From Vicinamibacteria bacterium (GTDB lineage Bacteria; Acidobacteriota; Vicinamibacteria; Marinacidobacterales; Marinacidobacteraceae): DNA of 64,000 nt. The position numbers were made by a program, and so were the translations under genes. The notes under the pieces were generated by a model, which worked only from the letters and a program-made list of their open reading frames with translations, was not told the DNA's origin and did not search any database. Location of the stretch: assembly GCA_964291235.2 (NCBI GenBank), contig OZ219816.1, forward strand, positions 1,216,001 to 1,280,000, written 5' to 3'. This document shows positions 17,850-63,747 of this stretch, in pieces. Position 1 is the first letter of the stretch. Every line of letters starts with the position of its first letter.

Positions 17850-20414
17850 ATGAAGACGAAATTCCGTTCCCGCCTCGCCTTCCGGTCGGCGCTGGTGTTG
17901 CTGGTAGCCGCCTTTACGGCGGCGCCCGTGTTCTCCCAGGACGCGCCGCCCACCATCGAAGAGAAGACCTCCGGGATGGAGCCGATTTCCGGGTTCGTGC
18001 CGCTCTTCTGGGACGAGCGCACGGGGCACCTGTTCGCCGAGTTCGCAGAAATGGACGAGGAGTTCCTCTATTCGGTTTCGGCGGCTTCCGGCCTGGGCAG
18101 CAACCCGATCGGGCTGGATCGGGGACAGATCAGCCGGCGCGCCATCCTCAAGCCGATTCGGGTCGGCCCGCGGGTGCTGCTCATGGAACCCAACTACCGC
18201 TTCCGTGCCGTCAGCGACAACCCCGACGAGGTGCGCGCGGTACAGGACGCCTTCGCCCCCTCGGTGCACTGGGGCTTCCAGGTGGTGGCGGAAACCGGAG
18301 AGCGGGTCCTCGTGGACATGACCGACTTCTTCCTGCGGGACGCCCACGGTTCCGCAGCGCGGATCCAGCGCGCCGGGCAGGGGACCTACCGGCTGGACCG
18401 GGACCGGAGTGTCTTCTACCTGCCGAACATCAAGGGCTTCCCCGACAACACCGAAGTGGAGACGATGCTGACGTTCACGAGCGACCAGCCCGGGCGGCTG
18501 GTAACCGGCGTCGCCGCCAGCGGGGACGCGGTGACCCTGCGGCACCACCATTCGCTCGTGCGGCTGCCGGGACCGGGTTTCGAGGTCCGGGTGGCCGACC
18601 CCCGCATCGGGGTGAACGGCCCCACCTACATGGACTACGCGACCCCGATCGACCAGCCCATGACGGTGCGGCTGACCGCCCGCCACCGGCTTGAGAAGGT
18701 TGATCCCACCGCGGAACGTTCGGAGGTCGTGGAACCGATCGTGTACTACCTCGACCGCGGCGTCCCCGAGCCGGTGCGCACCGCGCTCCTCGAGGGCGCC
18801 CGCTGGTGGGCCGAGGCCTTCGAGGCGGCCGGATTCATCGATGCCTATCGGGTCGAAGTGCTGCCGGAGGGAGCCGACGCCCAGGACATCCGCTACAACA
18901 TGATCCACTGGACGCATCGCCGCACCCGCGGCTGGTCGTACGGGGGAGGGGTCCAGGATCCGCGAACCGGGGAGATCATCAAGGGCAACGTGAACCTGGG
19001 TAGCCTGCGGCTCCGCCAGGACCACCTCCACGGGGTGGGTCTGGTGGCGCCTTTCGACGGGGCCTCCGGCGCTCCTCCCGCCGGGCTGCCGCCGGATCCG
19101 GACGGACCCCACTCCTGCGGGCTCTCCGCCGCCCCGGGCTTTTCCTATCTGGCCCAGGTGGGCGAGGGCGCGTCGCCGGTGGACCTGGCACTCGCCCGGG
19201 TCGCCCAGCTTTCCGCCCACGAAGTCGGGCACACGCTCGGCTTTCCGCACAACTACATGAGTTCGACCTACGGCGGCCGGGCCAGCGTCATGGACTACCC
19301 GGCGCCGCTCGCGGTCCTCGAGGACGGCGTGGTGAAGCTGGATGACGCCTACGGGGTCGGGGTGGGCTCCTACGACATCCTGTCCGTTCGCTGGGCCTAC
19401 GGACAGTTCTCGCCGGAGGAGACCGCCGCGGCGCTCGACGCCATCATGCAGGAAGGGCTGATGTCCGAGACGCGGTTCATGGCCCACACCGACAACTACA
19501 TCGGCGCGGGCGCCCATCCGCTCGCCTCCGTCTGGGACAACGGCCAGGACCTGGTCCGGCACCTGGGACGCGAAATCGAGATCCGCCAGGCCGGGCTCGA
19601 CGCGTTCGGGGAAAACGTCATCCGGCCGGGCGAGGCCATGTCACTGCTCGAGCCCGTGCTGGTTCCGCTCTACCTGCACCACCGCTTCCAGATGAAGGCG
19701 GCGCTGAACACCGTCGGCGGCCAGGAGTACTACTACGCGGTGCGGGGTGACGGACAGCGACCGGTCGCGTCCGTTCCGGGAAGCCGCCAGCGGGAGGCGC
19801 TCGACATCGTCCTCCAGACGCTCGAAACCGACTTCCTGGCGCTGCCGGAACGGATCATCGAGATGATCCCTCCGCCCGCCTACCGGGAAGCCGGTGGCGA
19901 GACCTTCGACGGCAACACCGGCCTGGTATTCGACCCGCTCGCGGCCGCGGACACCTCGGCTGACTACACGGTGGAGCTCCTGCTCCACCCGGAGCGGATG
20001 GCGCGGCTCGTGAACAATCACGCCCTGGATCCCGACCAACCCGGACTCGCGGAAGTGCTGGATCGACTGGTCGAAGAGACCTGGGGCGCCGCGGAGCCGG
20101 AGGGCAGCTACCGGCGGGCGGTGCAGGACGCCGCCGAGCGGAGCGTCCTGAACGGCATGATGCGCGAGGCGATGAACCCGGACAACCCGGCGCGGGTGCG
20201 GGCGGTCCTCGAGGATCGGCTCATGGCCCTCGGGGGAACGCTCGGTGACATGGACGGTAGAACGCCTCACGAGACGTTGGCCGCCGCCGACATCCACCGG
20301 TTCGCCAACCGCGACGAGAGCCTCGACCCGAACGCCAGCCGTCCGGAGCGGCCGCCGGGATCGCCCATCGGGGGCGCGAGCGCTTCCGGGACGCGGAGGG
20401 TTCCGGGTCGCTGA
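17850..20414 (+). CDS. Secreted zinc-dependent metalloprotease (metzincin; DUF5117/DUF4953-type)
   Basis: Signal peptide, HEVGHTLGFPH zinc motif and Met-turn ASVMDYP. Confidence 0.9.
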   Translation: MKTKFRSRLAFRSALVLLVAAFTAAPVFSQDAPPTIEEKTSGMEPISGFVPLFWDERTGHLFAEFAEMDEEFLYSVSAASGLGSNPIGLDRGQISRRAILKPIRVGPRVLLMEPNYRFRAVSDNPDEVRAVQDAFAPSVHWGFQVVAETGERVLVDMTDFFLRDAHGSAARIQRAGQGTYRLDRDRSVFYLPNIKGFPDNTEVETMLTFTSDQPGRLVTGVAASGDAVTLRHHHSLVRLPGPGFEVRVADPRIGVNGPTYMDYATPIDQPMTVRLTARHRLEKVDPTAERSEVVEPIVYYLDRGVPEPVRTALLEGARWWAEAFEAAGFIDAYRVEVLPEGADAQDIRYNMIHWTHRRTRGWSYGGGVQDPRTGEIIKGNVNLGSLRLRQDHLHGVGLVAPFDGASGAPPAGLPPDPDGPHSCGLSAAPGFSYLAQVGEGASPVDLALARVAQLSAHEVGHTLGFPHNYMSSTYGGRASVMDYPAPLAVLEDGVVKLDDAYGVGVGSYDILSVRWAYGQFSPEETAAALDAIMQEGLMSETRFMAHTDNYIGAGAHPLASVWDNGQDLVRHLGREIEIRQAGLDAFGENVIRPGEAMSLLEPVLVPLYLHHRFQMKAALNTVGGQEYYYAVRGDGQRPVASVPGSRQREALDIVLQTLETDFLALPERIIEMIPPPAYREAGGETFDGNTGLVFDPLAAADTSADYTVELLLHPERMARLVNNHALDPDQPGLAEVLDRLVEETWGAAEPEGSYRRAVQDAAERSVLNGMMREAMNPDNPARVRAVLEDRLMALGGTLGDMDGRTPHETLAAADIHRFANRDESLDPNASRPERPPGSPIGGASASGTRRVPGR

Positions 20415-20420
20415 CCCCGC

Positions 20421-20460
20421 GGAGCGGCGAGTTCGGCTTGACTCGCCGCTCCCGGTTTCT
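20421..20460 (+). terminator. Intrinsic terminator-like hairpin
   Basis: GGAGCGGCGAGT-(8 nt)-ACTCGCCGCTCC, a 12-bp perfect stem followed by CGGTTTCTT, just after the stop codon. Confidence 0.65.
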
Positions 20461-20465
20461 TGTCC

Positions 20466-20563
20466 GGATTCTGCATACTTCCGCGGTAGAGATCGACGCA
20501 GACTGGTTCTCCGCTCGGCGGGAATCCCACCAGCCTTGACGTCGCACGGGCACGGGAGCCCCC
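20466..20563 (-). repeat. Terminal module plus start of an inverted REP-like unit, interrupted by IS110
   Basis: Homologous to 46200-46290 and to the reverse complements of 22740-22823 and 53618-53687; continues at 22102 after the IS. Confidence 0.8.
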
Positions 20564-20565
20564 TA

Positions 20566-20571
20566 TAGGAT
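20566..20571 (+). promoter_or_regulatory. -10 box (TAGGAT) of the circle-junction promoter; the -35 (TTGCGT) is at 22081-22086
   Basis: Joining the right and left ends through one CC gives TTGCGT-17 bp-TAGGAT. Confidence 0.6.
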
Positions 20572-20577
20572 CGGCGA

Positions 20578-20770
20578 CGTCCTGCGGGAGCTGAGATTCA
20601 GCTGCCGTTGTATCAACTCAGGTTGGCCAATCCGCCGGGAGTACTAACTGAGCCCCGGTGCTGCGAGCACCTACGGTGGACACGTACCCCGACGGATGGC
20701 CGTGATGGACGACCAGTGGAGAGTCGGTTCCAATCGAGAACCAGTATAGGGGCTGGACAGCATCGCGGCG
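20578..20770 (+). ncRNA. IS110 bridge RNA (target-binding loop about 20625-20701, donor-binding loop about 20701-20767)
   Basis: Two stem-flanked internal loops whose guide segments match the target (GAGCCCC / CGGTGG) and the donor (GTGGAGAGTC / TATAGG), plus a 5' hairpin AGCTGA-GAT-TCAGCT. The ends are approximate. Confidence 0.85.
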
Positions 20771-20812
20771 CGGCGGACCTCCGACGGAGCGCAAGCTCGA
20801 AGGAAGACAGCG

Positions 20813-22075
20813 ATGAAGCAGAAGCTGAGCTGGTTCGTGGGCATCGACTGGGGCGAGCAGAGCCACCAGGTGTGCCTGTGCGACAGGCGCGGGAAGGTGC
20901 GCGGGGAGCGCGCCTTCGCGCACAAGGGATCGGGGCTGGCGGCCCTGGTGAAGTGGCTTAGGAAGCAGACGGGTGTGCCGCCGGCGCGGGTGGCGGTCGC
21001 GATCGAGCGGCCGGATGGGGCGGTGGTGGCGACGCTGCTGGAGGCGGGGTTTGCGGTCTATGCGGTGAACCCGCGGCAGACGAGCCACCTGCGGAAGTTC
21101 ATCTCCCACCCGGGGCACAAGAACGACCGGCGGGACGCCCGGATGTTGGCCACCACGCTGCAGGCGAGCCTGGCGGGGTTCCGGCTGCTGGTGCCGCTAC
21201 CGGGGTTGGTGCTGCGGCTGCGGGAGCGGACCCGGACGGCGGACCGTCTGCTCCAGGAGCAGGTCCGGCAGTGCCTGCGGATCCGGAGTGCGCTGGTGGA
21301 CTACTTCCCGCAACTGCTGGAGGTAGCCGGCGAGGCGAAGAACCTGGGGACTCCGTTCTTCCGGGAGTTGTGGGCTCGGGCTTCTACGCCGGCGAAAGCG
21401 CGGAAGGTGTGGTTGTCCACGTTGGAGAAGCTGGTTCGGCGGTATGGAGTGACCCGGATCAGCGCCGCGCGGATCCAGGCGTTGTTCCGGGAGCCGGCGT
21501 TGGTGATGGCGCCGGGGGCGACCGAGGCGTCGGTGGAGACGATCCGCACGGCGCTCGCGCAGTTGGAGGTCGTGCGAGCGGAACTCGTCCGGGCGGAGGG
21601 CCAGATGACCCAGCTGCTGGACGAGTTCTCGGAGACGGCGGAGGCCGGGGGTGGTTCGGATGCCACGGGCCTGGATCTGGTGAGCGCGTTGCGCTCACGC
21701 CCGGGCGCGGGGGACAAGGCGCTGGCCCGGTTGTTCGCCTGGGGCTTCGAAGCGCTCTCGGAGGGGAACTACCGCCGTCTGCGCGCCTACTGTGGAGTAG
21801 CCCCGATCGAGGACCAGTCCGGCAAGTCCGCACAGCTCCGGCAACGGCGCGCCGTTCCCAGTTCGCTGCAACACGCCACCTACATCCTGGCGCGGGGGGT
21901 CGTCCGCTGGGACGAGAAGGTGGCGGCCTACAACCGGAAGTTGAAGGCGGAAGGGAAGCACACGGCCCGGCGCCACCGGAGCATCGCGGATCAACAACTC
22001 CGGGTGCTGTGCGCGATGGCCCGGAACCGAACCCTCTTTGATCCCAACTTCTCCCAGAAGCGGAGGGCCGCCTAA
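20813..22075 (+). CDS. IS110 family transposase/recombinase
   Basis: RuvC-like DEDD residues (FVGID, AIERP, KNDRRDA) and the C-terminal YCGVAPIEDQSG serine motif; AGGAAG RBS. Confidence 0.95.
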   Translation: MKQKLSWFVGIDWGEQSHQVCLCDRRGKVRGERAFAHKGSGLAALVKWLRKQTGVPPARVAVAIERPDGAVVATLLEAGFAVYAVNPRQTSHLRKFISHPGHKNDRRDARMLATTLQASLAGFRLLVPLPGLVLRLRERTRTADRLLQEQVRQCLRIRSALVDYFPQLLEVAGEAKNLGTPFFRELWARASTPAKARKVWLSTLEKLVRRYGVTRISAARIQALFREPALVMAPGATEASVETIRTALAQLEVVRAELVRAEGQMTQLLDEFSETAEAGGGSDATGLDLVSALRSRPGAGDKALARLFAWGFEALSEGNYRRLRAYCGVAPIEDQSGKSAQLRQRRAVPSSLQHATYILARGVVRWDEKVAAYNRKLKAEGKHTARRHRSIADQQLRVLCAMARNRTLFDPNFSQKRRAA

Positions 22076-22101
22076 CGCTCTTGCGTTCTCGTGGAAAGTC
22101 C

Positions 22102-22206
22102 ACCGGGAGAACTGGGCCGGCCTCCAGGCTGGCACAGCGGGCCGCAGGCCCGCGTCGGCGCAGACCCCACCCGTCGGCATGGTTCCCGTCTCGGCCCGTA
22201 CCCCAC
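22102..22206 (-). repeat. Remainder of the inverted REP-like unit downstream of the IS
   Basis: GCCGGCCTCCAGGCTGGCACAGC and ATGGTTCCCGTCTCGGCCCGTACCCCAC are near reverse complements of segments of the 121-bp unit. Confidence 0.7.
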
Positions 22207-22270
22207 TCGGCGCGGTGGCCCGGTTTTCTCTGTCGCCAAATGCACCGGTTCTGGATGTCGCTTGACGCAG

Positions 22271-22823
22271 GGCTGGTGGACTTCTCCCCGAGAGCGGAAC
22301 CATCGTGACGCTGGAGAGTCCGTCCGGCCGCCCGCCTGCGGCGGGCTGTGCCGGCCTGGAGGCCGGCGTTCCCGTGCCGGCGCGACATCAAGGCTGGTGG
22401 GGTGGCCGCCGAGAGGGGAACCATCCTGACGCTGAAGGGTCCGTCCCGCCGCCCGCCTGGGGCGGGCTGTGCCGACCAGAGGTCGGCGTTCCCGTGCCTA
22501 CGGGACATTAAGGCTGGTGGGGTGGCCGCGGAGAGGGGAACCATCGTGACGCTGAAGGGTCCGTCCCGCCGCCCGCCTGCGGCGGGCTGTGCCGGCCTGG
22601 AGGCCGGCGTTCCCGTGCCTGCGTGACATCAAGGCTGGTGGGGCGGCGGCCGAGAGGGGAACCGTCCTGACGCTGAAGGGTCCGTCCCGCCGCCCGCCTG
22701 CGGCGGGCTGTGCCGGCCTGGAGGCCGGCGTTCCCGTGCCTGGGCGACATCAAGGCTGGTGGGGTGGCGGCCGAGAGGGGAACTATCTGGCGTTGATCTC
22801 GGCGGCGGGAGTACGAGAAATCC
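22271..22823 (+). repeat. Tandem array of four about 121-bp REP/BIME-like units plus terminal module
   Basis: Units start at 22271, 22392, 22512 and 22633, with a partial unit at 22754. Each holds the palindromes CCCGCC-TGC-GGCGGG and GCCGGCC-TGGA-GGCCGGC. Confidence 0.9.
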
Positions 22824-46424: not shown

Positions 46425-46495
46425 GCTGTGCCGGCCCCCACCGGGAGAACTGGCCTGGAGGTCGGTCCAGTTCTCCCGGTGGGGACTCCCGTGCC
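46425..46495 (+). repeat. REP variant with 18-bp perfect inverted repeat; unoccupied IS110 target-like site on the minus strand
   Basis: CCCCACCGGGAGAACTGG (46436-46453) / CCAGTTCTCCCGGTGGGG (46467-46484). Confidence 0.85.
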
Positions 46496-63709: not shown

Positions 63710-63747
63710 GGAGGCCGACCCAGTTCTTCCGGTGGCGTTCCCGTGCC
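63710..63747 (+). repeat. Degenerate REP variant related to the IS110 target
   Basis: Reverse complement reads GGCACGGGAACG-CC-ACCGGAAGAACTGGGTCGGCCTCC. Confidence 0.65.

Follow-up and report, generated by a model that had tools for sequence, protein, structure and literature searches.

Insertion of IS110-family elements into REP sequences has been known since the work on IS621 and on Pseudomonas elements (PMC11208160, citing Choi 2003 and Tobes and Pareja 2006; PMC12288879). According to the description of IS621 in PMC11208160, 144 of the 173 mapped insertion sites lie in REPs, single mismatches are poorly tolerated, and the left guides of the bridge RNA read the bottom strand while the right guides read the top strand. 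A comparable preference is displayed by ISPpu9 and ISPpu10, IS110-family elements of Pseudomonas putida that are present in multiple copies only in one REP subtype; for ISPpu10 the preprint account proposes that a stem-loop in the target acts as an extra determinant of specificity (bioRxiv 10.64898/2026.03.19.712850). Here we describe an element of the same family in a 64,000-nucleotide window, the whole stretch of DNA that was analysed, from a member of the Acidobacteriota. The behaviour is already known from E. coli and Pseudomonas, and what is new is a clean example in a different phylum-level lineage; no literature pairing Vicinamibacter with IS110 was found within the limited collection searched. 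The locus provides what is very probably a natural case of bridge-RNA-guided REP insertion from a little-studied high-GC lineage, together with an internal census of five occupied and 189 empty sites and with sister elements whose left guides and targets covary. As comparative material it bears on three questions, namely the number of guide positions that matter, the way in which the core is recognised and whether target context adds to specificity, and it leaves the picture drawn from IS621 and ISPpu9/ISPpu10 unchanged.

The genome (3.45 Mb in two contigs, 68% G+C) carries five copies of the element, all on contig C2 and 98.8-100% identical to one another by BLAST, and the recombinase genes of these five copies are the only matches to PF01548 genome-wide. 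The copy in the window (20564-22101, plus strand; TATAGG...GGAAAGT and a CC core copy at 22100-22101) is positioned between convergent genes for Met-zincin and TrkA-like proteins. To its left stands one half of the target, GGCACGGGAGCCCCC (20549-20563, plus strand), the last CC of which (20562-20563) is the left core copy and directly abuts TATAGG at the 20563/20564 junction, the element itself beginning TATAGGATCGG. At the right junction (22101/22102), GGAAAGTCC, which can also be written CGTGGAAAGTCC, is followed by ACCGGGAGAACTGGGCCGGCCTCCAGGC, and the right half of the target (22102-22130, plus strand) reads ACCGGGAGAACTGG and then enters the REP hairpin GCCGGCCTCCAGGC. Because CC can be assigned to either junction, we give the length of the element as 1538 bp, the CC forming a 2-nt core. 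Terminal inverted repeats are absent, and a 2-nt core is repeated at both junctions as it is in IS621, although the core there is CT. Three extra GGAAAGTCCACC sites outside the element were considered as IS ends and rejected, as they fall in Walker-A-like coding stretches or unrelated DNA.

The recombinase (420 aa; 20813-22075, plus strand) combines a DEDD_Tnp_IS110 domain at residues 9-166 (PF01548; E 4.6e-28, 98.4 bits against a cut-off of 29, profile positions 1-155 of 155) with a Transposase_20 domain at residues 292-373 (PF02371; E 1.4e-8, 35.4 bits against a cut-off of 21.3), and so shares with IS621 the DEDD RuvC-like and Tnp domains. Its similarity to solved transposases is distant (ISCro4, E 2.6e-7; IS621, phmmer E 3.3e-6 against 8wt6_A), and the putative catalytic serine is placed by alignment of the stretch ...EDQSGKS... 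with an SG-containing stretch of ISCro4. Upstream of the gene, the left end (LE; 20564-20812) is long, at 249 nt, and non-coding; the right end (RE; 22076-22101) is short, at 26 nt. The element belongs to the IS110 group of the IS110 family. In elements of the IS1111 group the RNA lies 3' of the gene, unlike in the IS110 group.

All five copies are inserted in one orientation between GAGCCCCC and ACCGGGAGAAC. The junction context is common to all, GGGAGCCCCC to the left of the IS and ACCGGGAGAACTGGGCCG to the right, with a single copy having ACCAGG on the right. The first-pass annotation had proposed that the element uses a multicopy, intergenic, REP-like repeat and had suggested mapping every copy; when this was done, five of five lay in the REP-like target and none in unrelated sequence. 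The 200-bp flanks of the copies are 51-86% identical as against 98.8-100% for the IS itself, and the copies therefore represent independent insertions into paralogous repeats rather than duplications. It is exceedingly improbable that the sites resemble one another because their flanks are part of a larger mobile unit or of segmentally duplicated DNA: copies 1, 4 and 5 do share extended flank similarity, as such a history would produce, but the difference in identity between flank and element speaks against it, as do the 189 IS-free places at which the target module is found, its presence in genomes with no detected IS left end, and the outcome of a BLAST of the IS against the genome, which returned no partial copies, solo ends or miniature derivatives.

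The flanks of all five copies are outside likely-coding ORFs, as assigned by a GC3 heuristic rather than by a gene caller, and each copy lies 103-234 nt downstream of a likely gene end on the same strand as the recombinase. This arrangement points to the targeted REP subtype being fixed in its orientation with respect to transcription from upstream. The copies form two sub-lineages, copies 1-3 and copies 4-5, which are separated by 17 shared substitutions. None of the 17 falls in any of the four guides described below; one lies in the target-loop hairpin (20662), and they include a compensatory pair at 20592/20600.

Folding of the 249-nt LE predicts a bridge RNA with a 5' stem-loop and two stems, each with an internal loop and a capping hairpin, an arrangement that corresponds to IS621, whose long LE encodes an RNA with one loop for the target and another for the donor. 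The predicted 5' stem-loop (20584-20607, plus strand) differs between the sub-lineages by the compensatory exchange of U-A for C-G at 20592/20600. The target-binding loop (20630-20697, plus strand) would comprise an outer stem, a left guide (LTG) GAGCCCC at 20650-20656, a hairpin at 20657-20671 and a right guide (RTG) CGGTGG at 20674-20679, and the donor-binding loop (20698-20769, plus strand) an outer stem, a left guide (LDG) GTGGAGAGTC at 20716-20725, a hairpin at 20726-20742 and a right guide (RDG) TATAGGGG at 20745-20752. The fold of the whole LE has an energy of -102.8 kcal/mol with a z score of only -2.13; the sub-fragment 20630-20790 (z -1.32) does not reproduce the two-loop architecture, which both the full-LE and the alignment folds do show. 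Since a scan of 20300-22400 against Rfam 15 with E up to 1 gave no matches, in which respect the RNA differs from that of IS621, it is assigned by its architecture and covariation rather than by a curated model; either the curated families do not include this RNA or it has diverged too far from them.

The guides match target and donor on both sides of the core. LTG GAGCCCC has the same sequence as the left target on its top strand, up to and including the first core C, and RTG CGGUGG is complementary to CC plus ACCG. On the donor side, LDG GUGGAGAGUC corresponds to the RE end GTGGAAAGTC apart from a single G-T wobble (own pair GGAGAGU/GGAAAGT), and RDG UAUAGG (20745-20750) is complementary to CC plus TATA of the LE start. 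This division of labour, with the bottom strand left to LTG and LDG and the top strand to RTG and RDG, is the one reported for IS621 (PMC11208160); here the LTG matches 7 nt and the RTG pairs over 6 nt, in which it differs from IS621. The pairing scheme departs from that of IS621 in that the second core C faces a G in both left guides, LTG and LDG.

Related elements in other genomes lend support to these assignments. From an alignment of four LE sequences of relatives, a set that is small and drawn from related, non-independent genomes, a consensus structure of 62 pairs emerges, and compensatory changes occur in 11 of these. Left guide and left flank change together across the relatives in five distinct pairings, four of which are perfect and one of which matches at 8 of 9 positions. 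A GAGCCCC guide accompanies a GAGCCCC flank in the element described here and in L002, L003 and L005-L007; AGGCCCC accompanies AGGCCCC in L008/L014 and L015, the site form matching this sister-lineage guide being AGGCCCCC followed by ACCG; guide GGCGUUCC accompanies flank GGCGTTCC in three genomes (L017, L018 and L019), and AUGGAGCGC accompanies ATGGAGCGC in L020/L034. The 8/9 match is that of guide GCCGGCCCC with flank GCCGGGCCC(C) in L032/L036. Locus L004 has the guide GAGCCCC at the site AAGCCCCC (AAGCCCC), and L016, a decayed copy, was left out of the comparison. The LDG likewise tracks the RE end in two relatives, as GGAAAGU/GGAAAGT in L002 and GGAGAGU/GGAGAGT in L008. Right flanks, where they were located, all start with CC followed by ACCGGG(A/C)GAAC.

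The sequence into which the element inserts is a rare subtype of a true REP family. We assign it to such a family because the backbone that lies downstream of where the element inserts, which consists of GCCGGCCTCCAGGCCGGCACAGC and then a second short hairpin, recurs in about 280 copies genome-wide (18-mer, up to 3 mismatches), because its hairpin has 8-bp arms (GCCGGCCT/AGGCCGGC), with 18-bp perfect arms in addition at 46436-46484, and because the genome has a RAYT-like gene with inverted units. This gene, the single Y1_Tnp gene of the genome (L001, G000:C1:15098-18334, ORF 1096-1827; profile match with E 1.5e-7, 32 bits against a cut-off of 23), contains the HVH motif region and is flanked by oppositely oriented base REP units at about 960-1030 and 1920-1990 of L001, with another at about 2040-2100. 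Copy number, the two short hairpins, the tandem and inverted arrangements and the single RAYT-like gene between inverted units are features shared with REP/RAYT (REPIN) systems. What differs is that the IS copies are not inserted in the common, base form of the repeat, ...GGGAACGCC-GG-CCTCCAGG, which makes up 194 of the 280 copies, but in a rare variant that has an 18-nt module, CCCCACCGGGAGAACTGG, in place of part of the 5' end. Only about 17 of the 280 backbone copies bear the module, and the earlier description of the target as a repeat subtype is borne out. The repeat is also multicopy, mostly intergenic and palindromic: besides the shared junctions and the flanked RAYT-like gene, 65 of the 75 places that match the 19-mer of the module exactly are located outside likely-coding ORFs, in a genome of which such ORFs cover 60-65%. 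Directly downstream of the window IS is a tandem array of base REP units without the module (22288-22787, minus strand; period 121 bp, 4.1 copies, 91% matches), so that the IS sits within a REP cluster; the array has by far the top summed contig depth in the sequencing runs examined.

The module itself extends beyond this REP family. It has 83 exact copies in the genome, in at least three unrelated repeat contexts as well as in direct tandem, and its occurrence in unrelated repeats and conservation across genera set it apart from REP/RAYT systems. A search for the exact 18-mer found it in all 15 other genomes examined from the genus, at 5 to 1,288 copies, and in six of 12 genomes from the family's other genera (four of those six genera), and the reversed control gave no matches. 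Genomes in which the search gave no LE match, for example G044, G023, G029 and G041, also contain it. A derivation of the module-bearing REP from base REP plus a single 18-nt insertion was tried and rejected, there being no clean decomposition.

A second copy of the target in the window, at 46455-46495, is not occupied. Its plus strand is CTGGAGGTCGGTCCAGTTCTCCCGGTGGGGACTCCCGTGCC, and the minus-strand reading, GGCACGGGAGTCCCCACCGGGAGAACTGGACCGACCTCCAG, agrees exactly with the reverse complement given in the first-pass annotation; the IS-deleted site given there was likewise reproduced on removal of the IS and one copy of the CC core. The empty 41-mer and the rebuilt occupied 41-mer differ at three of 41 positions, namely C/T at the fourth base of GAGCCCC and two G/A changes further downstream, and the T therefore falls, as had been stated, within the 7-nt region read by the left guide at 20650-20656. 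Chance origin of this resemblance is excluded: with up to 3 mismatches, the right-hand 24-mer has two matches in the window against 0.00 expected from 100 shuffles, and the left 19-mer has one against 0.23 expected. The site is an unoccupied paralogue of the IS target (minus strand), a REP unit bearing the 18-nt module with prefix GAGT and one LTG mismatch, and it lies between convergent FtsX/MacB-like and formamidase-like genes. Together with a second copy of the module, of which it is the opposite arm, it also makes up a perfect 18-bp inverted repeat (46436-46484; arms 46436-46453 and 46467-46484, 13 nt apart), a feature absent from the earlier description. The whole is a double-module REP variant in which the plus-strand arm is the second module copy, with prefix CGGC in place of GAGT and two mismatches to the LTG. 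The more diverged copy noted earlier at 63710-63747 (minus strand) is as described; it reads GGCACGGGAACGCCACCGGAAGAACTGGGTCGGCCTCC, with a degenerate module GGGAACGCCACCGGAAGAACTGG and several mismatches to both guides. We conclude with high confidence that 46455-46495 (minus strand) is an ordinary member of the REP subtype, never occupied or currently unoccupied, and that the subtype is a natural attachment site for this IS110-group element.

It had been suggested that mismatches to the guides account for the empty copies, and a comparison of occupied with empty sites had been proposed. With the IS copies removed in silico, the genome has 194 module sites with up to 3 mismatches in the 18-mer. 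Guide mismatches were counted against GAGCCCCCACCG; the 12 guide-specified bases are GAGCCCCC followed by ACCG, a 12-mer that arises where the module has a GAGC prefix and of which 21 intact exact copies occur genome-wide against 3.7 expected from composition. Four of the sites with no mismatch are occupied and 19 are empty; with one mismatch, one is occupied and 30, the window site among them, are empty; with two or more, none is occupied and 140 are empty. Occupied sites thus number five of 54 with zero or one mismatch versus none of 140 with two or more (one-sided Fisher p=0.0015), in a test that is based on five insertion events and is not fully independent, because the occupied sites themselves helped in part to identify the guide. 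The set of usable sites is thus bounded by guide match, but a perfect match does not predict occupancy.

This pattern bears directly on the proposal that the T at the fourth LTG position blocks pairing and that such mismatches separate empty from occupied sites. As a contributing cause of the empty state we consider this rather unlikely. The T is central in the 7-bp duplex, single mismatches are poorly tolerated by IS621 as noted above, none of the four exact GAGTCCCCACCG sites (contiguous intact 12-mers) is interrupted by the IS, and occupancy declines with mismatch from 4/23 through 1/31 to 0/140. The 19 perfect module sites (21 exact 12-mers) that are nevertheless empty mean, however, that the T is not needed to explain the empty window copy. 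One occupied site has a mismatch of its own in the RTG-paired part, ACCA for ACCG, and two occupied sites in relatives depart from their left guides, L004 at AAGCCCCC as against GAGCCCC and L032/L036 at the same -5 position, although in all three cases the site may have mutated after insertion. The earlier explanation is thus not upheld, and the main correction to it is that the empty state calls for no explanation of its own: most matching sites are empty because there are only five IS copies, just as hundreds of matching REPs stay empty in the case of IS621, which shares the natural use of REP targets. The central mismatch probably makes the window site a poorer substrate, but it does not set empty sites apart from occupied ones, and given that 4 of 23 perfect sites and 1 of 31 one-mismatch sites are occupied it can at most lower the odds.

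Occupancy of a single sequence context hints at a second determinant. Five of the 11 sites in which a single module adjoins the REP backbone (A1) are occupied versus none of 13 others (one-sided Fisher p=0.011), where the test covers perfect or occupied sites, the others are type B, double-module and other sites, and the classes were drawn post hoc, after inspection of the data, for five events. It is accordingly possible, although we propose it tentatively, that the REP backbone and hairpin or some structure of the site gate insertion, and that the double-module palindrome at 46436-46484 is disfavoured whatever the T does. The sequence between -8 and about +18 is common to the contexts, which diverge only beyond these limits, and the stem-loop of the ISPpu10 target, as presented in that preprint, offers a precedent for a target-borne second layer of specificity. 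There the stem-loop uses a 5' extension complementary to LT; here no 5' complement to GAGCCCC is seen, and the candidate feature is instead the REP hairpin 3' of the module. Against such gating, one of six copies of an 82%-identical relative in a sister genome (L004) lies in a type-B-like flank, inspection by eye finds no complementarity of the bridge RNA to the bases at which contexts A and B differ, and purifying selection against type B insertions would give an identical pattern. Two segments of the LE, CGGGAGC (20586-20592) and CCGGGAG (20636-20642), resemble the target, and 7-mer matches of this kind are expected by chance.

According to the mechanism that we propose, the IS would excise as a circle in which RE is joined to LE at the CC core, and transcription of the 5' non-coding end would yield a bridge RNA containing two internal loops. 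LTG GAGCCCC and RTG CGGUGG of the target loop would then read the bottom and top strands of the target, respectively, while LDG and RDG of the donor loop read the RE-LE junction, and the DEDD/Ser recombinase would exchange strands at the core. In such a circle, where a promoter at the junction would drive the RNA, TTGCGT of the RE and TATAGG of the LE would stand 15 nt apart. Site-specificity, RNA fold, matches of guides to target and donor, covariation, REP identity and the census together make it highly likely that this element inserts into the REP subtype by bridge-RNA-guided recombination at a CC core and that its empty paralogous sites are many, the flagged site among them. It is formally conceivable that 46455-46495 once held an IS copy that was precisely excised, since excision in the IS110 family is described as scarless (PMC11208160) and a former site would look identical. 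This history is highly improbable: the site is indistinguishable from the other empty sites among the 189, and its mismatch makes it a poorer site than 19 of them.

Seven sequencing runs contain part of the stretch, none of them listed as RNA. Comparison of 19900-22700 with Logan contigs of four runs gave neither a RE-to-LE circle joint nor an empty-allele contig at the IS locus. A contig of run X4 that joins 20563 to 22103 via G (depth 10.3, side 27) was considered as an empty allele and rejected; we read it as a paralogue because a further REP copy in the genome, GAGCCCCCGCCGGG, has exactly this sequence. In X1, X2 and X4 the IS contig has a word depth 5.3-5.9 times that of the left-flank contig, where word depth is not copy number.

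Across the genus, the covariation described above raises the possibility, which is speculative, of a natural 'retargeting series'. Under this scenario the right guide CGGUGG would be held constant on the 18-nt module while the left guides GAGCCCC, AGGCCCC and GCCGGCCCC address different prefixes and other lineages address base REP, with REP-context gating added in the genome described here. If this is true, bridge-RNA elements and the genus-wide repeat landscape co-evolve, and target structure, beyond guide match, sets which 'safe harbours' are open.

Finally, the relatives vary in the organisation of their ends. A pattern derived from the LDG, applied with up to one mismatch, did not locate the right ends of the more distant relatives L037-L041. 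Other right ends are far longer than the 26-nt RE in the window: L002-L007 (2740-2975) have roughly 230 bp of additional non-coding sequence and L008/L036 several hundred bp, and some of the long right ends (among L002-L008 and L036-L040) contain repeated GTGGGAAGGGTGGGAAGGGCG-like motifs. L009 and L011 (about 1345-2500) are internally deleted IS copies, in which the bridge-RNA region runs directly into the C-terminal portion of the recombinase, the match beginning at residue 170; both lie within an apparent duplicated segment with identical flanks.
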